Below the pieces are notes generated by a model. The model did not search any database, was not told the DNA's origin, and saw nothing but the letters and a program-made list of their open reading frames with translations. A stretch of 64,000 bases of DNA from Octopus sinensis (Eukaryota): the NCBI RefSeq assembly GCF_006345805.1, contig NC_042998.1, positions 77,376,001-77,440,000 of the forward strand, given 5' to 3'. Each line of letters opens with the position of its first letter. Position 1 is the stretch's first letter. A program made the position numbers and the translations under genes. Positions 5,299-50,919 of the stretch are shown piece after piece.

Positions 5299-7900
5299 AT
5301 GGAGTTGTTCAATATTAACGCCTCCCTTAAGGATATCCCTGTTCCACCGAAAAAGCCTTCCTTAAGGAACTTATTAGCAAGATTAATGCATTCAACATTC
5401 GCATCAGATGACTCGCCTTCTTCCACGACAATGAGGACCTAAAACGGACCAGTAACGACGTCTCCCATGAAAATAAAAACTATTTAAATCGAGGGGTACT
5501 CCTCCACCTAATCCTAGATTGAAGAAATTTGAAGTTTACCTTTGGAACATCGTAAAGAATATTAAATTTCATAGATCACCCCTCAGGAATAAACACCTCA
5601 GATACCTTAGTAACGTCGCTAGAGATATAAACAACTTAGACTCTATCCTGGTCCAATCGGATAAAACCGGCAACATCTACAAACTTATCAAAAGACATCA
5701 TTTAGAACTGCTCGAAAGGGAGATACATAAGAATTACAGGACCACCAGTAGGAATACCCTCAGGCAGGCCAACTTAGAAGCTAAACAGATTATGGAAACT
5801 TACGGATTACAGATGAAGACGGAACCATTGAAGCCTAGACAACCCAGATTCATTTTAAAGGACCACAAGCAGCACTTTCATACTAACCCAGCATTGCGGC
5901 TCATATGCCCTTCCAGTTCAGACATCGGCACCCTTAGTAAATACATATTAGATAAGTATATCCCTATATTAATTAATAAATTAAAACTTAGCTTATGGTC
6001 CAATTCTGTTCAAGTCGTAGATTGGTTCACCTCTATTACTGATAAGGCCAACACTAAATTTATCCAATTCGATATATCTAGTTTCTATTCTTCAATCAAC
6101 CCTATTATACTTAATAAGGCCCTATGGCACGCACACAATAAGGCAGGCCTCTCCAGGGAGGAAATTAATGTGATATTGACTGCTAGGAATCCAGTTCGAT
6201 AGCAAGTTGTGGGTTCGCAGAGATACCCCCAATGCGTTCGATGTACTAATGGGAAGTACAGACAGCGCCCAGATAGCCGATGTGCTCGGTATTTATATTC
6301 TTTATGAAATGGCCGACCAATTCCTGGACATCTGTGGAGGTCTTTATCGCGACGATTGTCTGTTTTACCTCCAAAATGTCTCAAACCAAAAAATACAGAA
6401 GGTTAAAAATAGGTTAGTTAGGTTTTTTGGTAGAATGGGCTTGCACATCGCTTTTGACGATGAGTTAACTAAAGCCAACTTCTTAGACATTACCCTCAAT
6501 TTACAAAATAACTCACACTTCCCTTACCATAAAACCCTCCACAAATCTTAAGTATATTAGCCTTTACAGTAATCATGCCAAGCCCGTTACCGATAATTTA
6601 GTCAAAAACATATCTTTGAGACTTTCTAAAATATCTGCCAATGTTGACATCTTTAACCAAAAGGCAGACTTTTATAACGCCGCCTTGGCAAAAGCTGGCT
6701 ATAAGGAGAAAGTGTCATACATAGATTCAGCTCATTCTAAACCAACATCTGCTTCCCCAGATAGAATAGTTACTTATAATAGGAATAGTAGTTTTAATTC
6801 TAATAGTGCCAGCAATACTATGCAAAATATAAATTCTTTACGGACCAAGGGAGGTAGGCGCCGTTCAACCCCAAATTTTCAACCCAGTAATTTTCCCCTC
6901 ACTTTCACAAATAACTCTACGTATAAGTCAAAGGCCACTAAGAACTGTATCTGGTTCGTAATACCTTTCGGTAAACAAATTAAATCGAACCTTCCCTTAC
7001 AGTTCCGTGAAGCCGTCGCTAGGAACTTTCCCAGAAATTCTAGATATTATTCTATTATCAATTCCCACATAGTAAGAATCGCTTTCTCTAACACTAGAAA
7101 TCTTTCACAAATTATATCTTCTCACAATACCAAGCTGATAAATAGAGATTCTTCACCCGCGAGTTCCAACATAAATCTTACTAATTCCAACCCATCATGC
7201 AGTCATACTAATAGGAATAGTATTAATAGTAATAGCAATGATAGTAGCGATATTGTTAACAATGATAATATTAATAATATTATCAGTCGTGTTAATAACA
7301 ATGGTAATGTTGATAGTGATAACAATAACGGAGAAATTAATGATTGTATTATCATTAACAATACTAACAATAATGCGAATAGTGGAGCTGCTAGCGCTAA
7401 TAATAATAGTAGTAACAACAATCATAGCAATAAAAACTTCATTTCGATCTCGGAGAACAACCCCAACAGAATTAAATGTTTGTCTAGTAATTCTAAGATC
7501 GAGAATTCTATTTACCAGTGTAGAGTCTCCTCAGGTACCGATGTCTTCTTCTATATAGGAGCGTCCTCTTCCCAGTTATCCAAGAGAATTTCAAACCACT
7601 ATTCAACATTCAGGGATAGTAAAAAACGACATAGTACAGGGCTAAGTAAATTAGTTTGGCGTCTTAAAGACAATAATATAGATTTCAAGTTAGATTGGTT
7701 CATACTGTCTGTATCTTTTCCTTTTGATAAGGACAGGAGATTGTGTAACATTTGCAACTCTGAGCTCTTCCATATCCTCTTCTCTAAGGTTCCCCTTGTA
7801 AACACACTCATAGAGAAATCCTATAAATGTAAGCACTGACAGAAACATACTTTTTACTCTTACAAATGATTACGATAGGCATCGTGCTTTGAACAATTAG

Positions 7901-13009: not shown

Positions 13010-15306
13010 TTAGTATTCCTGGCCCAGGGTGTTTAAACTTGGTCTAAATTTTTTTATGAAATATAGTTCTTTATTTTGGCGTTGTGTGAAGGTTGCGTTG
13101 TCACTGAATTTATAGAGCGGGTTAGTTGTAAATTTCGGATTTACATTTCCAGCACATCTATCTATGTGTCCGCTGACCGGTACTTTGCGGTAATCAGGTT
13201 TCTAATTTGTGATTTATGCACCGCCATCCTGTTACGTAAGCTATTTTTTGTATGGCCTATATACTGCCTATTGCAGCCTGCGCATGTTATGACGTAAATT
13301 AAGTTTTCTGATGCGCAGGTGAAGTTTGTTCTAATGGTGAACTGGTGGCCTTGTTCCAGTATAAATTCTGATCCTTCTTTCAAGATGACACAGATTCCGC
13401 AGTTGGGCCTTCCACATTTTCTAACTGCTGGTTTTGTGGTTGATGTTGAGTGCAGTGTAGCTTGGGTTAAAATCCTTTTCAAGGATTTTGGTTGCCGTTT
13501 ACCTTTAATGATGGTGTGTGTTTCGAGGATCCGGTTCATCTTTGGGTCTCCCTTTAGTAGGGCTGTGCTTTGTAGTATGGTGTTGAAGGCCTCATTGTTG
13601 AGTGGGTTGTGTGTAGAGATGTAGGGAAGGGTTTTTAATTGTTCTTTCTTTTTTGGTTTTGTTTGTCTCAGGTCTTCTATACTTAATTTAAGTACCCGTT
13701 GGATTGCACTGTCTATTGGGGGCTGTGGATAGTTTCTCTTTGTGAGTGTGGTTCTAAGTTCCTGGAGACGTGTGTGTCGGGTGTTTGTGTCTGATATTAT
13801 GGTGCAAATCCTTCTAGCTAAACAAAAAGGGACATTCATTCTAGTGTGTCGTGGGTGGCATGAATCAAAGGGTAGGTACTGTTTAGAGTCTGTCGGTTTA
13901 TAGTAGATATCTGTCTCTATTTTGTTGCCGGTTTTCTTAATGAGGATGTCTAAAAATGGTAATTCTTTTTCGTTGTGGTCCATCGTGAATTGTATATTGT
14001 CATTTATTCCATTTAATAGAATTTTAAATTCCTCAAGTTTCTCTATGCCTTTGTCCCAGATGATGAAACAGTCATCGAGGTATCTTTTCCAGTTGTTATG
14101 GATATAGGTGGCGAAGGTGTTTCCATATTTCTCGAGTGTCATCCGGTATAGTATTTTCTCGAGGTATCCCATCACTAGGTTGGCAAAAGATGGTGCAGTA
14201 CGCGTGCCCATCGCTGTTCCCGATCTTTGCCTGTAGAAATCATTGTCAAAAATAAAATAATTGTTCTCTAAAATGAATCTAAGTCCTTCTATTATAAGGT
14301 CTTTGTTTATGCGAGTTGGGAGTTCAAAGGGGTAGTTATTCAGCCAGAAGGTGATCGCTTCTATTCCTAGGTTGTGAGGGATGTTAGAATAAAGATTAAC
14401 TACGTCGAATGATACTAGAAGGGTTTTCTCATTGACTGTTTTAGGGAGGTGGTTGAGCATATCTATATCGTCTCTTACGTAGCTTTTGATGTGTTTTAGG
14501 AAAGGTTTAAGAAGTGTGTCTAAGAAATTGCTGAGGCGGTGAGTTTCACATGCTGGCCCTGCTATTATCGGTCTTAGTTTAAGATCATTTGGTGAAGGGA
14601 TTTTGATGAGTGTGTCGGTGGATGTTTTGCACGTTTCTCTAATGGTTTGGCTTTTGTGTACCTTAGGGATACCATAGAACAAACTCGATTTGCATTTGAA
14701 GTTAGTGATGTATTCATACTCCTTGTTCGTGAGTCCTTCTTGGTATGTGTTGATTAATGTCCTAAGGTTATGCATTATTTTTTGCTGGTTATACTGTTGG
14801 GCCCTTTCATAATACGTTTCATCTCTTAATAGGGATAGCACTAAATTTTTATAATTGTTTGTATTCATTATTACTATCGCGTTGCCCTTATCTGCCTCCT
14901 TAATTGTTATTGTTTTGTCTTCTCTTAGTTTGATGAGGTCGTTCCATTCTCTTTTGTTGAAGTTAGGGCTGTGTTTTTGTTTCTTGATGAATTGAAACGG
15001 GAAATTAGTTATGTAGTCACAATAGCGGTCTAAGGCTTTATTCTTACCTTTGGTGGGGGTGTAATTGCTCTTGTTTCTAGCTATTGAGTCCTCCTCTATT
15101 TGTTTGTCTTGAAATGCCTCGGTGAGTCTTAGTTTTCTGCAAAATTCCGAAATATCATCTTTCATTTCATAATAATTAGAACGTTGTGGGGTGGGTGTAA
15201 ATTTAAGTCCTTTGGAGAGTATGCTTATTTCGTTAGGTGTAAGTTCTTTGTTTGAGAGATTGATTATCTTAATTACCTGAGGTTTCTTTTGTTTGTCCTT
15301 TGCCAT
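13010..15306 (-). CDS. PLE reverse transcriptase + GIY-YIG endonuclease (one 1-nt frameshift near 13197)
   Basis: Motifs INLS..LT..E...LSKGLKFTP, ADKGNAIV, YGIPKVHK, LRPIIAG, SFDVVNLYSNIP, GTAMGT, RYLDDCF, LPFLDI, SCHP, CGRPNCGIC linker, NLIY...YIG. After the frameshift the frame continues PDYRKVPVSGHIDRC...KELYFIKKFRPSLN to TAA at 13010-13012. Confidence 0.92.
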
Positions 15307-16606
15307 CGTGTGTCCCTGTTCCTGTGTGTGGGGTCTAAAAAATGGTTGGTGTAGTTATGTTCAAAGCTATTATTTATCTGTCTCATGTTGTTATAATTGT
15401 CAGAGTGAGTTTGTGGTGCTCTGTTCTGGAGTCTGTTGTTGAACCTAGTGTTACGTCTTAGTTCCTCAGGTATATTGTGTTGGTAGTTGTTTCCTCCGTA
15501 GTGCATTTGTTGTTTGTTATGGTTGTATGGTTGGTTCCTGGGGTGGATGTTTGGTAGTAGCGTTTTGGTTTGGTTATGTGGGTTGTATTTTATAGTATTG
15601 TATGTTGTGGCTCTTAGGTTCGTGGAATGGTGTGGTGGGACCCTATAAGTGTTTTGGGGTTGGTGTAGTAGTGTGGGGTGCGTTTTAAATGCATTTTTCT
15701 GGTGTAGAGTGTGTTTGGATTTCTTGGTGGTTGTTCTGCTCTGTTGGTATGTCTATTTTCGAACTGGTGTGGTGGGCCTCTGTAGGTGTTTTGGGGTTGG
15801 TGTAGGTAGTGTGGGGTGTGTTTTAGGTGTACTTTTCTGGTGTAGAGTGTGGTAGGATTTCTTGGTGGTTGTTCCGTTCTATTGGTATTTGGTTTTGATT
15901 TGCTTAATTTTATGAAGGGGTTGTTGGATATGTGTTCATTTTTGAAGTTGGTTTCATAATCTAGAAACCAGATGGCGCTCTTTTCCCATCGTTGGAGGGA
16001 CTTAAGTTCCTCTTTTTCACATTCTTCATTCCATAGTGCTGGTAATGTTTCAGTATTGTTGTCGTCTATTAGTTTGATGACTTCTTCGTTGATTTCCTCG
16101 TCTATGGTTTTTACTTTTCTTCATTCGTTTTAGCTCTCAGCTTAAGTAGTTCTATTTCCATCTTCATTTTTTCTAATGACATTTTTCTCTAAGTTTTCTT
16201 TGTTCTTCTGGTTCTTCCGAGATGGGTTTGATTTGTAATTTACGGGGTATGACTAGGGGTGTTGAGTCTAGCCATTTTTGGTAAATCTCTGCTTTATTCT
16301 GATTTTGTATCATTTTCCAAAAAGCGAATTTTCTGTTTCGCTGTAGTGTTCTCCATTGGGGGAGGACTTGGTTCTTTATTTGTAATGTTGAAGTTGCTCG
16401 GTTCTTCTCATGTGTTCCTTCTTTTTGTTGCTCTTGTTTCGTAAAGTTTGTGAAGAATGTCGTCATTGTATCGCATAGATTTTCAACTTTCTCGAATATT
16501 TCGGAGGGTGTTTTATTCGATTCGGTTTCCTCGTTAGTTTGTGTAGAAGGTCGAGGTGTTAAGTTGAGTTTGTTTAACACTGCTGTTAGGTTTGAATTTA
16601 TGCTTT
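15273..16606 (-). pseudogene. Upstream ORF1 of the PLE: helical/coiled-coil-like Trp-patterned domain, then an N/H/P/Q-rich repeat tail; frameshifted and 5'-truncated
   Basis: Track ORFs 16173..16646 and 15273..15506 are joined by manually read segments (KMSLEKMKMEIELLKLRAK, VKTIDEEINEEVIK..LWNEECEKEELKSLQRWEKSAIWFLDY). Same strand and A/C-rich composition as the RT ORF; contains a ~138-bp internal tandem repeat (15649-15890). Confidence 0.7.
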
Positions 16607-26619: not shown

Positions 26620-26830
26620 GTGTGTGCATATGTTTGTATGTCTGTGTTTGTCCCCCCTATATCGCTTGACAATCGATGCTGATATGTTTACGTCCCCGTA
26701 ACTTAGCGGTTTGGCCAAAGAGACCGATAGAATAAGTACTAGGCTTACAAAGGATAAGTCCTGTGGGACTAAAGGCGGTGCTCCAGCATGGCCACAATCA
26801 ACTGAATGAAACAAGTAAAGGTAAAGAATA
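26389..26830 (+). mobile_element. tRNA-derived SINE (family A), full length, with internal (TA)n
   Basis: Head tggctatgtggta...ggattcagtccc, core gcaccttgggcaag..tgtcttctactatag, tail ggcggtgctccagcatggccac; multiple copies occur in the window. Confidence 0.9.
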
Positions 26831-43379: not shown

Positions 43380-45280
43380 AGACCTCACTATATTACCAAT
43401 TTTGAGTCGAAATCCAGCAACTTATCCAAAATATATAAGTCAAAAGAAATATAGAACGCTATAAAGAAACAAGATTGTGAATACATAAAATTGCTACAAC
43501 CAAAAAACCTTAAACTAAGACCCATTATAGCTGGTCCAGCCTGTCCTACACATCATTTGAGCAACCTCCTTGACATTAACCTAAAACCACTATGTAGTCA
43601 CAATTTCATTCGAGGTGACATTGATTTCCTGTTACATCTACCCAAAACTACAGAATCCCATTCACTTTTAGTTAGTATTGACTTAAACTTATATACAAAC
43701 ATTTCACATGACTTGGAACTAACTGCCATAAAATATTCGGTCGAGAAACATAAATCCCCAGTAGATTTACTGTAACCTTCATACTAGGCGCGGTCAGCCT
43801 CATCCTCGGAAACAATACATTTTTTTCAACGTTAAAAAAACACCTCCAAATTCGAGGCACAGCTATGGGGACGCGATTTGCTCCAGTTTTCTTGAACTCA
43901 GTATTGGGATATTTGGAACAAAACCTATATAAAAAAATTGAAGCGAACTACGGCCTGACCTTTAAAAGACATATATATAGGACATGCAGAAAAGGTACCT
44001 CGATGTTGTTTTCCTAATTTGGACCAAATCCCTAGAAAATCTGGAAGATTTCAGCTCCCTCTCCAATAATCTACACCCTAGTCTCAAATTCACAAGAGAA
44101 ATGAGCAACAGACAATTACTATTTCTTGACATAATGGTAGTTAAAAACAACACCACAATCACAACTGATATTTATTACAAAAGCACAGAAACACACCAGT
44201 ACCTAAATTTCAAGTCATGCCACCCAAAACACATAAACTATATTTCATACTGTCTAGCCAGGAAAATTTGTACTATAGTTAATGATCCAATTACCAGAAA
44301 CACGCGACTTATAGAACTAACAGGATTTCTGCTGCAGCAAGATTCCATCAAAATACCACAATACCATTTCAATTAACACAATCCGCATCACCAAAACATT
44401 TTTAACCTCATGAAAACAAATTCGCCAGGGTGAAAAATTTAAAAAGCTGTAATAACTAAACAAACACTTATCTTAAGTAAAAGGAAACCACATAACTTAA
44501 AGAAACTATTAACAAAGGCAAAATTCAACATGCGAAAACATGATAAAACATTCAGTTTTCAAGTGTAATGATAACAGATGTGGAGCGTGTCAATATATAT
44601 ATATATATACGGGTAGATCCATTAGAACAGAAACATGTACAGATTTTCGCAAATGCAGATATGAAATGCAAAAGCAGAAATTTTATCTGCATTAAATGCC
44701 TAAATTGCAAGGAACTATATATTGGAGACACAGAGAATACATTATCGAAACGCTCGTCAGTCCATAGACAACAAATCCGGAACCTCAAGGTTCGCAAAAT
44801 TAAATCGAAGGAGCATATAGAGACATGTAGTCAGAAAGTGTTTCTAATTTTACCTTTCTATAAACTACATGACACAAATGATATTAGAAGAAAGAAAAAC
44901 GATTTATTAAAATGTTCAAACCTGTTCTGAACGGAAATATTAGCAATAATACAAGAACCAGTTTATGATGTGGATTAAAAAAGAAATCTCTAACATATAA
45001 ATATAAACATGTTACAGATTATCGGTACGCCTGGTAAACCGTGATATTTAAGAAGCATGCGGACTGGTCAAAGGATATTCTAAAATTTCACCTTGCTGGG
45101 GCGTTCTAAGAGGTACTAAAGTTGTCAAGAACACAACTGCCAGTCAAACACATTTGAAATTTGATGATTGCTCGATGTATCAAAGCGCTAATTTAACTGT
45201 ATGAGCATTACAAAATAATTTTAATGTTAAAATACTATAATAAAAAACGCTGAAAAGCATACCATGTTTTAACTTTATTC

Positions 45281-45811: not shown

Positions 45812-46908
45812 TAATTTTCCAGATACTCTATCTTCTAATTAGCCTTAAGATTAAATTAAATAACGTTTAATATTGATACCGTCAAATTAGCCTTAGGATT
45901 AAATTAAATAACGTTTAATATTGTTTAATATTGTTAATAATTATTGTTAATTAGCCTTAAGATTAAATTAAATAACGTTTAATATTGATACCGTCAAATT
46001 AGCCTTAGGATTAAATTAAATAACGTTTAATATTGTTTAATATTGTTAATAATTATTGTTAATTAGCCTTAAGATTAAATTAAATAACGTTTAATATTAA
46101 AAACGTCTAATTAGCCTTAGGATTAAATTAAATAACGTTTAATATTGTTAATAATTATTGTTAATTAGCCTTAGGATTAAATTAAATAACGTTTAACATT
46201 GTTTAATATTGTTAATAATTACTGTTAATTAGCCTTAAGATTAAATTAAATAACGTTTAATATTGTTTTAATATTGTTAATAAATCTTCAGATACTCTAT
46301 CTTCTAATTAGCCTTAAGATTAAATTAAATAACGTTTAATATTACCCACACTCTAATATAATATTAACATTGCTAATATATTTTCAGATACTCTATCTCC
46401 TGATTAGCCTTAAGATTAAATAACGTTTTTATCCACACTCTAATATAATATTAATATTGCTAATATATTTTCAGATACTCTATCTTCTAATTAGCCTTAA
46501 GATTAAATTAAATAACGTTTAATATTAATAACGTCTAATTAGCCTTAAGATTAAATTAAATAACGGTTAATATTGCTTAATATTGTATATATAATTTTTC
46601 AGATACTCTGTCTTCTAATTAGCCTTAAGATTAAATTAAATAACGTTTAATATTACCCACACTCTAATATAATATTAATATTGCTAATATATTTTCAGAT
46701 ACTCTATCTCCTAATTAGCCTTAAGATTAAACAACGTTTTTATCCACACTCTAATATAATATTAATATTGCTAATACATTTTCAGATACTCTATCCCCTA
46801 ATTAGCCTTAAGATTAAATAACGATTTTACCCAAATAACGTTTTTACACAAACTTTAATATTGTTAATATTTCTTTTTCAAGTACTCTATCTTCTAATTA
46901 GCCTTAAT
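45812..46908. repeat. AT-rich complex minisatellite (core aattagccttaagattaaattaaataacgtttaatatt) abutting the LINE ORF1
   Basis: Many copies of the core with variable linkers; the last core ends about 60 bp before ATG 46969. Confidence 0.9.
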
Positions 46909-46968: not shown

Positions 46969-47875
46969 ATGTCCAGAGCATGGAGACGTGACGAGCTGGA
47001 TTTATTCGTACGAGCATGGGAGTGCGCCGGCGGAGATAGCCCTAGGGAGGTGATTGCGGCTGCGCTGAAGAGCAGAGGCTACAAGAGGACAGCGGCTCAG
47101 ATGGAGCGAAAGAGACAGGAATTCGTGCGCTCATATGCGCTTGTACGGTCGCACATTGGCGCACTTGATGCCATCTTTGAGAACGAGCGGAGCAAAGATG
47201 GCAAGAATGGAGACGATGAAAGAAGTCACCCCCACCTGGTGGACGCCCGGGAGGAGGTTTTGAATGAGAACCTGCCCGGGAAGTGAACCCAGGTGCAAGT
47301 TCTCCAACCGGCAGCAAGGGCCATGGAGACGGAGAACCCGGTGAAGAGGTAGAGGGAGGAAGAAGAACTAAAAGAAGGACTGGAAGAGCTAAAGGAAAAG
47401 AAAAAGCTCAAGCAGGACCAAAGTGTGAAACAACCAGAAATAGAAGTGGAACCGCAAAGGATGGAACCAAACAGCGCACACGGTGTGTATGTTCTACCTG
47501 AGAGGTTCCTGCTGGCATGGAAAGGAAGGTGCAGGCTGCCGCTTTGCACATCGGGGACCCTGCCACAGAGACACGAGGCAGATGGACAAACCATCAACAC
47601 AAAGAAAAGGGATGGACCACGCACCACCTGCCCCAAAACGGAGGTACGCAGATGTTGTGCGCGCCACAAACAGCCAACATGATGTCGAAAGAGCAGCTGC
47701 TGAGCAACAATCTTTTTTGTGCATGGCACAAAAGATTGTACAGCAGCTGACCTGGCTTCATCAAACCCAAGCCCGCAGGTGGGACTACCCACTATATACC
47801 AGACCACCACAGCAAACAGACACAGGATGGACACCGCCGGCAACAACGTACACCTCACCTCGATACTCCTACTGA
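46969..47875 (+). pseudogene. LINE ORF1: Myb/SANT-like (trihelix) domain + CCCH zinc finger; disrupted
   Basis: MSRAWRRDELDLFVRAWE...VIAAALKSRGYKRTAAQMERKRQEFVRSY...LDAIF fits the trihelix Myb/SANT pattern. VCMFYLRGSCWHGKEGAGCRFAH is C-x7-C-x8-C-x3-H. The two lie in different frames, joined by a charged linker with stops. Confidence 0.7.
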
Positions 47876-50818
47876 ACATCAGAGGACTGCAAACACTCAG
47901 TAACAGGACAAAGATCCCGTTCCTGAGAGACTTTGTTGCATGCAATCAAGCCTTATGCATAGCACTTACAGAAACGCACCTGAAACCGGACATAGCAGAT
48001 GCGGAGTTACACATACCACAGTATGCTGTACTACGGACCGACAGGAAAGAAAGGAGTCATGGAGGTGTTGCTATGTACATCCGTGAGGACCTCACACCCC
48101 AGGTCCTCTTGTCATACTCAAACTCGGTGTGTGACACACTAATTGTACATATTAGGCAACTTGATGTAGTTGTGTGTGCTACATATCGCCCTCCAGATGC
48201 CCCAAGCCATGTGGGCAAGTTTGAAGACTGCCTTATAAAAATAGAAGAAATTCTAACCACATTAGAGCAACACATAGGTGTGCTTCTTATGGGAGACTTC
48301 AATCTGCCCAATGTCAGATGGCCCGAGGGCCTTTCTCTCCCAGGAATGACAAGATGTGAACGAGGACAGGCGAGGTCCCTCCTGAACCTCATCAACACAC
48401 CTGTACATGGAGCAGGTAATACTCCAACCAACCAGGGCAGGTAACACACTGGATCTCTGCTTCACAAATGACATGGATCTCATCCATAATGTGAAAGTGA
48501 CACCGACACTACTCTCGGATCACAACATGATAGAGCTGACCATGTACGGGCCAAAAGAGAGCACGGACATGCAGCCTACAAGAAACCCTCAAAATCTTTC
48601 CAGCTTGAACTACCATAAGGCAAACTGGAAACAAATTGAGAAAGAGATCCTCAAACAAAACTGGCCTAAATGTCTCTCCTCGCCAGACATCGACGTGAAA
48701 CTTCAACAATTCATGTCTGTAATGCAAGCCATATGCTACAAATGTGTCCCAGAGAGAAAGGACAATGTACACAAGAACAAAATCCCCAGAGAGAGGAAAA
48801 TTTTAATGAGACGGCGTACGAAATTTTCAAATCGCCTAAACAAACAGATTGAAAGCAGTGAAAAGTTCCGCCTAAAAATAAAACTGTTGGAAATCGAAAA
48901 ATGTCTGCAACTCTCCCATGAAAAAGAAAGAGCAGACAAAGAAGCCTGGGCTATAGAAAACATAAAATCTAACCCCAGAGCTTTCTACAGGTATGCCAAA
49001 GAACAGCTACAGTGCACTGTAGAATAGGGCCACTCCTCGAAAAGGATGGCACACTTACAGGAAAACCAATGAGGGTAAGTGAAATACTGAATGAGCAATT
49101 CAAGAGTGTTTTCACTCCACCCCTTGGGCATCTCCAAATCACCAATCCAACTGACTTTTTTACCACTGCAGATATAAAATCAGAGGCGGCGACGATAGAT
49201 TACATCGATATAAAGGAAGACGATGTAACCAAGGCTATAGATGAAATGAAAACAGACTCAGCTACTGGCCCCGATGGATTCCCGGCAATCCTCCTAAAAG
49301 CATGTAAGAGAGTCCTAGCAAGACCACTGCAGTTCCTCTTTCAGAGCTTCCTTGCAGCTGGCAAACTTCCAGGAAAACTGAAGGAAGGTAAAATATGCCC
49401 CATTCATAAAGGAGGTAGCAGAGCGGAAGCCAAGAACTATAGACCTATCTCTCTGACCTCACACATCAGCAAGGTCATGGAACGAATAGTCAGAAGGAAG
49501 CTGATCACCTTCCTTGAAGAGAATGACTTGCTGCCCGACACCCAACATGGTTTCCGACCAGGGAGAAGCTGTTTAACTCAGCTCCTACAACACTATGACT
49601 GGGTGCTGAAACGGCTGCTCAACCACTCAAATGTGGAAGTGATATATCTCGACTTTGCAAAGGCCTTTGATAAAGTCGATCATGGATGATATGTCACAAA
49701 CTGCGTGATCTCACATAGTTGGAAAACTGGGAGAATGGCTTCATGACTTTCTGAAGGATAGAAGTCAGGTGGTAGTAGCCAATGGGGCCACCCCATTAAC
49801 ACACAAATAGTGAGCGGTGTTCCGCAGGGCACTGTTCTGGGACCACTACTGTTCATAATGGCCCTCTCAGACATGCCCTCAGCCATGCAGAGAGCCACGA
49901 TCACAAGTTATGCAGATGATACAAAAGTTTCACAGGCAATACAGAACCCTGAGGACACTAAACACTTGCAATGTGAGCTGGACGAAATATACAAGTGGGC
50001 TGAAAAGAATAGCATGCAGTTCAATGCTGGAAAGTTTCAAGCTTTATACTATCAGCATGCAAAACTGAATGCAATACCAATGAATACACTGGACCCGGAG
50101 GGATTGCAATCCCAGAGGCACAATCAGTGCGTGACCTGGGTATTCACATGAGTGATGACGCGACCTTTCATGTACATGTTGCTAAACTGACAATGAAATG
50201 TAGACGGCTGGCTGGATGGATTCTTAGAACCTTTAGAACAAGAGAATAAAAAACCATGATGGTCCTCTGGAAGACACTTGTCCTAAGCCACTTTGACTAT
50301 TGCTCTCAGCTATGGTCACCATCCAGTGTCAAGTTGATCACAGAACTTGAGGCGATCCAACGAAGCTACACAAAGAAGATAGCCTCTATGCAGAATGTAA
50401 GCTACTGGGAAAGACTCAAGAGATTAAATTATATTCTCTGGAGCGTAGGCGGGAAAGATATGCCATAATATACATCTGGAAGATCCTGGAGGGAAGTGTC
50501 CTGAACTTTGGCATCGAGAGTTACGCAAATGCCAGAACTGGGCGCCACTGCGTGGTGCCTAGGACTCCAAACCTGCCATCAAGATGTAGGACAAGATTCT
50601 GTGATAGCCTGGGCTTCCGAGGCCCACAGCTCTTCAATATCCTCCCGAAGAACCTGAGAGACCTGCATGGGGTGGATACAGATGTCTTTAAAATGAAGCT
50701 GGATCTCTTCCTGTCAGGTGTCCCAGATGAACCAACTTCACGGCAGGAGGGGCAGATGAGGGCAGCTGCATCGAACTCTCTCATGCACCAAATAGCAGTT
50801 GCTAGAAAGCCTCCATGA
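47713..50818 (+). pseudogene. LINE ORF2: AP endonuclease + reverse transcriptase (CR1/L2 group), several frameshifts and stops
   Basis: EN motifs LLNIRGL, IALTETHL, GGVAMYI, YRPP, MGDFN, PTRAGNTLDL, SDHN; RT motifs GPDG, NYRPISLTS, QHGFRPGRSC, YLDFAKAFDKV, SGVPQGTVLGPLLF, YADD; C-terminal DYCSQLWSP, FNILP, FKMKLD. Confidence 0.95.
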
Positions 50819-50919
50819 AGTGAAACCAAGTAGCAACACCAAATGGCGGTGCCCCAGCATGGCCACAGCTCATAAGCTGAAACTAGAATCAATCAATCAA
50901 TCAATCATATACATATATA

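Follow-up and report, generated by a model that had tools for sequence, protein, structure and literature searches.

How the second open reading frame (ORF2) of LINE elements is translated is a long-standing open question, and reviews, in the parts available, describe reinitiation for the animal elements. Mammalian L1 and Bombyx SART1 both feature a bicistronic LINE RNA, and their ORFs are described as separate or as stop-start arrangements with reinitiation in the accessible portions of PMC5009743, PMC1965478, and PMC10275272. The element described here resembles them in its RNA layout and in an endonuclease and a reverse transcriptase (RT) that align with L1 ORF2p, however, its ORF1 runs to the first strand of the endonuclease and overlaps ORF2 by ~160 nt. 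The TRE5-A and TRE3-A elements of Dictyostelium are APE-type non-LTR elements with two ORFs that need a -1 frameshift for ORF2, according to the part of a review that is available (PMC5911963). They are amoebal, target tRNA genes, and feature a zinc-finger end of ORF2, and no heptamer is given for them in that part of the review, whereas the present element is an animal CR1/L2-group LINE with a CCCH ORF1 and a heptamer that can be traced across lineages. Drosophila HeT-A is another non-LTR element with a frameshift requirement, however, the shift lies inside gag and HeT-A has no RT, as described in the available portions of PMC5009743 and PMC5443660.

The HIV-1 gag-pol junction features an X_XXY_YYZ heptamer in the frame of the first ORF, a long overlap, and a structural protein that is fused to enzymes (PMC5009743, whose accessible part covers the heptamer form, L1 initiation, and long-range stimulators). 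The HIV-1 heptamer, U_UUU_UUA, has the same letters as those of the LINE families B and C and of the distant loci L191, L192, and L195 that are described below. The same part of PMC5009743 describes a helix that pairs sequences 5' and 3' of the HIV-1 site. The present junction differs from that of HIV-1 in that no stem-loop or pseudoknot was found 5-9 nt behind the site, the heptamer of the family in the window ends in G, and the element is not an LTR element. The CR1/L2 elements of ORF1 types I-V are two-ORF APE-RT elements with a variable ORF1, and the present CCCH ORF1 fits only the unclassified type V in the available part of PMC4120745. The terms CCCH, Myb, and frameshift are absent from the main text of that paper as accessible, and frameshift, slippery, and CCCH are absent from the available text of PMC13343379; the accessible parts of PMC10294476, PMC5006619, and PMC11230384 have no bearing on the mechanism. 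A search of open full text, with subscription papers, Repbase, and supplements outside its scope, found no report of frameshifting at the ORF1/ORF2 junction of a CR1/L2-group LINE. The comparison of sequences given here reveals a real and conserved feature, which would be a retroviral-type -1 site without the usual 3' structure.

The element and its ORF1/ORF2 junction

The window (the whole stretch of 64,000 nucleotides of Octopus sinensis DNA that was analysed) holds a nearly full-length LINE at 45.8-50.9 kb, which consists of 5' repeats, ORF1, ORF2, a 3' motif, and a tail, all on the plus strand. The 5' region (45829..46900), whose exact 5' end is imprecise, features AT-rich tandem repeats that are common to other copies, and at 45829-46850 these form a nested AT-rich tandem array with a copy number that varies between insertions. 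ORF1 (46969..47875) encodes 302-303 aa from the ATG at 46969 in intact copies and is broken here at 47268 and 47481. Its N-terminal three-helix, Myb/SANT-like part (46975..47154) matches Pfam PF13837 with an E value of 0.0013, which is below the cut-off, and its CCCH zinc finger (47480..47551) matches Torus (E 0.00068) and zf-CCCH (E 0.095), both also below the cut-off; the Cys/His pattern of this finger is kept in relatives. A structure model of the intact ORF1 protein from copy L013 (mean pLDDT 67) features a three-helix N-terminus with helices at residues 7-76 (pLDDT 79-97), a disordered middle, the CCCH finger, and a helix at residues 237-272. A search with the ORF1 C-terminus returned no match among longer proteins, and the ESM Atlas gave no usable match for ORF1. 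The ORF2 frame (47704..50818) encodes an APE endonuclease and an RT, and is in several pieces in the window copy. Pfam Exo_endo_phos and RVT_1 are above the cut-off in ORF2, and the profile match of its endonuclease and RT to L1 ORF2p has an E value of 1.5e-42. The 3' motif with a small stem-loop (50845..50907) is common to families A, B, and D, and an (AATC)n tail begins at 50887. Two short repeats elsewhere in the window, at 26777 (plus strand) and 30383 (minus strand), carry the same 17-letter motif as the 3' end of the LINE; the tail of the repeat at 26777 resembles that of family D, and both repeats are probably SINEs mobilised by this LINE group.

In the host genome, to which a protein labelled Octopus (P0003) aligns at 100%, 1941 candidates match the junction; 40 of them were scored and 30 retrieved, and these are all 99-100% identical. 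The copies are dispersed, are truncated at various 5' positions, and end in a simple-repeat 3' tail, as is characteristic of an APE-type LINE. The window copy is a dead member of this young family. Compared at each position with the 27-29 other copies that extend over it, it has private indels in the form of one lost base at each of 47268, 47481, and 49001 and one gained base at 48399, and further breaks downstream are visible in the list of ORFs. Its junction agrees with that of the family despite this decay. A tree of endonucleases without clade labels assigns the element to a group of 29 rows (support 94/85) that excludes both a crane protein (P0084) and the loci L203 and L210; the deeper forks are weak, and "CR1/L2-group" is meant as no finer clade. 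Copy L233 combines an A2-type junction with an A-type 3' end and is possibly a subfamily recombinant.

The arrangement of the junction that was originally predicted can be read directly from the window, with every coordinate correct as given. The last -1-frame stop upstream of the site, a TGA at 47701..47703, is followed after 9 nt by T TTT TTG (47713..47719) in the ORF1 frame, which ends with a TGA at 47873-47875, and the -1 frame continues without a stop from 47704 into the endonuclease. The first-strand Asn of the endonuclease, the Asn of an LLN sequence, lies at 47875-47877 and is aligned with residue 14 of L1 ORF2p. The TGA that ends ORF1 is there because the Leu-Asn codons of this first strand force it. 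The slippery heptamer, U_UUU_UUG, spells Phe250-Leu251 of ORF1 in the middle of the predicted helix 237-272, and the ORF1/ORF2 overlap behind it (47720..47875) lies in a -1 frame that is depleted of stops in relatives. Measured from the heptamer to the ORF1 stop the overlap is 163 nt, in agreement with the ~160 nt of dual coding that was first estimated, and it contains the in-frame ATG that was also pointed out, at 47827..47829, which arises from Gly-Trp codons of ORF1. An X_XXY_YYZ heptamer in the zero frame with a -1 frame that is open into a second ORF is the form of a programmed -1 frameshift site. Heptamers of the form XXXYYYZ are, however, found in frame 16 times in 4198 ORF2 codons, and the heptamer of a single copy is therefore weak evidence; it is the relatives that carry the case. 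Conservation within the family is uninformative because the copies are 99% identical and a young family cannot show constraint. The contigs of four sequencing runs, which have no difference at 47709-47757 among 40 of the 71 rows listed, were not counted as evidence.

The heptamer in host lineages and distant relatives

Sister lineages were found by searching the host genome with diverged proteins and DNA, and the counts refer to best-scoring copies, not to a census. The 11 host lineages (A, A1, A2, B, B2, C, C2, D, E, E2, and F) form main groups that are 27-40% apart, and U_UUU_UUG or U_UUU_UUA is found in ORF1 phase in 9 of them. Copies without a homologous site were dropped (0/35 in A, 1/21 in A1, 2/48 in B, 2/5 in C, 2/3 in C2, 1/13 in F, 1/7 in E, 3/12 in E2, and 0/10 in D). 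The original prediction named a heptamer or phase that varies among young copies as evidence against it; both are kept in 35/35 best-matching copies of family A. An additional sample of family A that was chosen by endonuclease alone holds 30 copies, including the window's own, of which 4 end 3' of the site; the heptamer is kept in 23 of the 26 that reach it, and the other 3 feature small deletions. Six T followed by A or G were found in 19/20 copies of A1 (one more has an extra T), 4/4 of A2, 43/46 of B (35 TTA and 8 TTG), the majority of C, E, and E2, and the single readable copy of C2.

Two families deviate from this pattern. In family D, which is young (copies 2% apart), Val replaces Leu, and A_AAU_UUU is found one codon earlier in 10/10 copies. 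The old family F is represented by 30 loci, 6 of them unreadable; the heptamer ends in G in 13 of the other 24, one reads CTG, and 10 have no G, most of these reading T7-AAC, which places a UAA in the -1 frame directly behind the site. One other column is weakly linked to this difference (p 0.02 among hundreds), and since the linkage is weak and the tree does not resolve the copies, the run may have decayed repeatedly, or the difference may go back to a master variant. Five old copies from different families (L032, L039, L072, L152, and L175) are 5'-truncated within ~15 nt upstream of the U-run. This cluster, which was not seen in the 30 family A copies, could be a hot spot or an effect of the query.

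A scan of metagenomes gave 33 loci, and the 5' side was read in 24 of these. L191-L195 share the endonuclease group of the host families, with 34-45% endonuclease identity; the 5' DNA of L193 and L194 is too short, and the readable distant relatives are L191, L192, and L195 (35-45% identity). Conservation in relatives, one of the checks proposed at the outset, was borne out for the heptamer, which is U_UUU_UUA in 3/3 of these loci and codes for (Ser/Ala)-Phe-Leu. Their -1 frame is open for 84, 71, and 60 codons, respectively, up to the endonuclease Asn, with no ATG. L191 has a related CCCH ORF1, and L195, which is represented by one decayed copy, has 3 stops in the ORF1 frame and only ~30 nt 5' of the site. 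The upstream -1-frame stop, which was to be checked in the same way, did not prove to be conserved, as it is absent at that spot in D, E, and L191. Metagenome loci outside the L191-L195 group have other layouts. Among them are three distant LINE-like loci (L202, L207, and L212), in which the upstream ORF ends with a TGA in the endonuclease frame, followed by CTA, ~10 codons before the Asn; this layout resembles stop-codon readthrough. No relatives were found in either of two scans of viral contigs. Among genome contigs a single locus was found, L274; its 5' part is occupied by another element and its junction is unreadable.

The codons at the site were compared in 14 rows, the 11 host lineages and the 3 distant loci, using family majorities, or single copies in the case of C2 and the distant loci. 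Phe is spelled TTT in 14/14 rows and the next codon is TTA or TTG in 12/14. The base before the Phe codon is T in 14/14 rows despite a change of the amino acid (Ser, Ala, Thr, or Asn), and 19 of the 20 flanking degenerate columns vary synonymously among 8 host lineages. The bodies of ORF2 served as a control, in which 0/25 Phe-Leu pairs are spelled T-TTT-TTR, and the chance of this spelling, calculated from the codon use of the respective element, is 0.005-0.019 for the host lineages, 0.028 for L191, and 0.078 for L192. Additionally, T is found at 25/110 synonymous sites where it makes a -1 stop upstream of the heptamer, versus 1/34 between the site and the candidate start (Fisher p 0.005); the same count on single copies over the whole overlap is 30/140 versus 2/36 (p 0.018), and both p values are optimistic because the lineages are related. 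By these comparisons the heptamer is conserved at the nucleotide level beyond the needs of the protein, with part of family F as the exception. The Phe-Leu pair itself lies in a predicted helix, and its amino acids may therefore be kept for the protein.

A probable frameshift and the sequence behind the site

The layout, the phase, the nucleotide conservation, and the absence of an AUG in several lineages point to a programmed -1 frameshift as the probable way in which ORF1 and ORF2 are joined, and the ORF1-ORF2 fusion that was first proposed from the window is supported by this comparison. In such a mechanism most ribosomes would finish ORF1 and yield a full ORF1p with the whole C-terminal helix. 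A minority would slip back by one base, with tRNAs on UUU and UUR, and would pass through a low-complexity linker into the endonuclease and the RT. The fusion protein predicted from copies L013 and L234 would have ~1285 residues (251 + 1034 open codons), made up of ~251 residues of ORF1 (the three-helix domain, the CCCH finger, and the first half of the C-terminal helix), a ~50-residue linker that is rich in Thr, Ser, and Pro, the endonuclease, and the RT, and it would be without the second half of the ORF1 helix. If the element uses this fusion, slippage would set a ratio of the two products like that of Gag and Gag-Pol. An in-frame AUG may provide a second route to ORF2 in the lineages that have one.

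A wider reading is offered more tentatively, as one that may hold but falls somewhat short of probable: Gag-Pol-style -1 frameshifting would be the normal route to the RT beyond this host as well, throughout an invertebrate clade of CCCH-ORF1 LINEs in which the ORF1 helix is halved, the nucleic-acid-binding parts are carried into the fusion, and no classical 3' RNA stimulator is used, perhaps with help from the element's own CCCH protein. If frameshifting is correct, these LINEs make their ORF2p as an extension of ORF1p, annotations that place the start of ORF2 at its first AUG are in error, and animal LINEs, too, set the ratio of their proteins by a form of recoding deemed typical of retroviruses and LTR elements. 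The natural variants (UUG, UUA, and A_AAU_UUU, with and without an AUG) make the question directly testable.

A slippery heptamer that ends in G, as in the window's family, is a weak form in eukaryotic assays. A search of open full text gave no data on the efficiency of U_UUU_UUG. A 3' stimulatory structure 5-9 nt behind the site is usual, although not universal, at -1 sites, and none was found here. In the window, shuffled sequences fold as well as the sequence behind the site, and the first 45 nt 3' of it have a z score of +1.5 in the window copy and scores below -2 in 2/14 rows. Local folding of the 14 rows, a scan that leaves pseudoknots and protein stimulators outside, revealed no conserved 3' stimulator. 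Pairing of the tail with the sequence behind the site was examined in 10 full-length copies, in which the best tail window ranks 4 to 66 of 207-340, and no tail-pairing helix is common to A, B, and D. The hairpin that was described in the original prediction does overlap the heptamer, however, it is longer than was given there. It extends over ~47694..47749 on the plus strand with the heptamer in its 5' arm, and has a folding energy of -30.6 kcal/mol and a z score of -4.69, with 0/200 shuffles as stable. This hairpin was considered as the cause of the U-run and rejected, since it is strong only in the A lineage (z -4.5 to -5.2 in A, A1, and A2) and none of the other 11 rows reaches z -2.

Other routes to ORF2

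The best-surviving alternative, which is nevertheless unlikely, is that ORF2 initiates by itself at an AUG or a near-cognate codon, by backward reinitiation or internally, and that the U-run is kept for something else, for example the hairpin or binding by the CCCH finger. The ATG at 47827 was named at the outset as a possible independent start of ORF2. Its codon is ATG in A, B, B2, C2, and F, GTG in A1, A2, D, E2, and most of E, and ACG in 3/4 copies of C, so that with GUG in five lineages it is not a conserved start. Most host lineages do have a well-placed ATG or GTG at this position; the majority of copies in most lineages carry a purine at -3 together with G at +4, and this favours separate initiation, as does the one copy in 30 that starts exactly at 47827. 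An in-frame AUG is found somewhere in the overlap in most host lineages (A, A1, A2, B, B2, C2, F, and E; in A1 and A2 at codons 20 and 48), and the F variant with a -1 stop still has two AUGs. The positions of these AUGs, however, shift between lineages and fall mostly on Trp or Cys codons of ORF1. No AUG is found between the site and the endonuclease in family D (7/10 copies open, 3 with indels) or in the majorities of C and E2. Copy L225 of family D has an open ORF1 and 1043 open codons in the -1 frame, in which LLN is at codons 61-63 and the first Met is codon 73. The Asn at residue 14 of the L1 endonuclease is called necessary in the available part of PMC1965478, and as the first Met of L225 comes after the Asn aligned with it, family D has no AUG route to an intact endonuclease. 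Initial Met residues of database proteins were disregarded, as they may stand for GTG or TTG starts.

Start codons other than AUG have some bearing on this alternative, as any sense codon can replace the AUG of L1 ORF2 (PMC1965478, available part) and SART1 reinitiates (PMC10275272, likewise in part). A CUG in L192 overlaps the UGA of ORF1, 11 codons before the Asn, whereas L195 has no AUG, CUG, GUG, UUG, or ACG after codon 8 of its 60. The distance is also unlike that of viral stop-restart pairs, which lie within 20 nt and fall off past ~30 in the accessible text of PMC10275272; the ATG at 47827 is 46 nt upstream of the ORF1 stop. No conserved start within ~20-30 nt of the ORF1 stop was found; a near-stop ATG occurs in A1 and A2 only. 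A 2A/StopGo motif, D(V/I)ExNPGP, is absent from the -1-frame translations of the overlap as judged by eye. Separate initiation leaves the phase of the heptamer, the alternative valid heptamer of family D, and the avoidance of stops upstream of the start unexplained, and a hairpin that is strong in one lineage does not account for the U-run in the others. A programmed frameshift remains the preferred reading.

It is much less probable that a separate ORF2 mRNA arises by splicing or trans-splicing, with the U-run as the pyrimidine tract of the 3' acceptor. Such an acceptor would fit L191, L192, and L195, which all read TTTTTTAG, and family C, which reads TTTTTTAAG; however, in the youngest lineages (A, A1, A2, and B) the run is not directly followed by AG, and D has no U6. 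Each of the 30 endonuclease-chosen copies aligns as one colinear match and none is spliced; their 5' ends are scattered. The sole joint found in the four sequencing runs has CA..GA ends (in contigs only, whose RNA status is guessed). Slippage of the polymerase on the T6 run, which would change the frame in the RNA and not on the ribosome, is improbable in the extreme. Genomic copies do feature one-base indels in the run, however, such indels are frequent throughout the copies, the run has only 6 T (4 T in D), and RNA slippage requires no codon phase. Runs as short as 6 T slip rarely. Equally hard to credit is shared ancestry combined with protein constraint on Phe-Leu and a spelling by chance, which would accord with the predicted helix and the relatedness of the lineages, in view of the synonymous divergence in the flanking columns and of the control pairs, none of which is so spelled.

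The original prediction compared the frameshift proposed for the LINE with that of a Penelope-like element (PLE) in the same window. The PLE, which lies on the minus strand, does carry T TTT TTA, at 15342-15336, with the RT frame in -1, as far as the letters themselves tell. This heptamer lies in the frame of an upstream ORF that is rich in Gln, Asn, and His, the RT ORF spans 13162-15354, and an ATG is found ~10 codons later. The plus strand carries additional remnants of Penelope-like RT, recognised as decayed by eye in the lists of ORFs, at 43754-44930 and 5477-7839.
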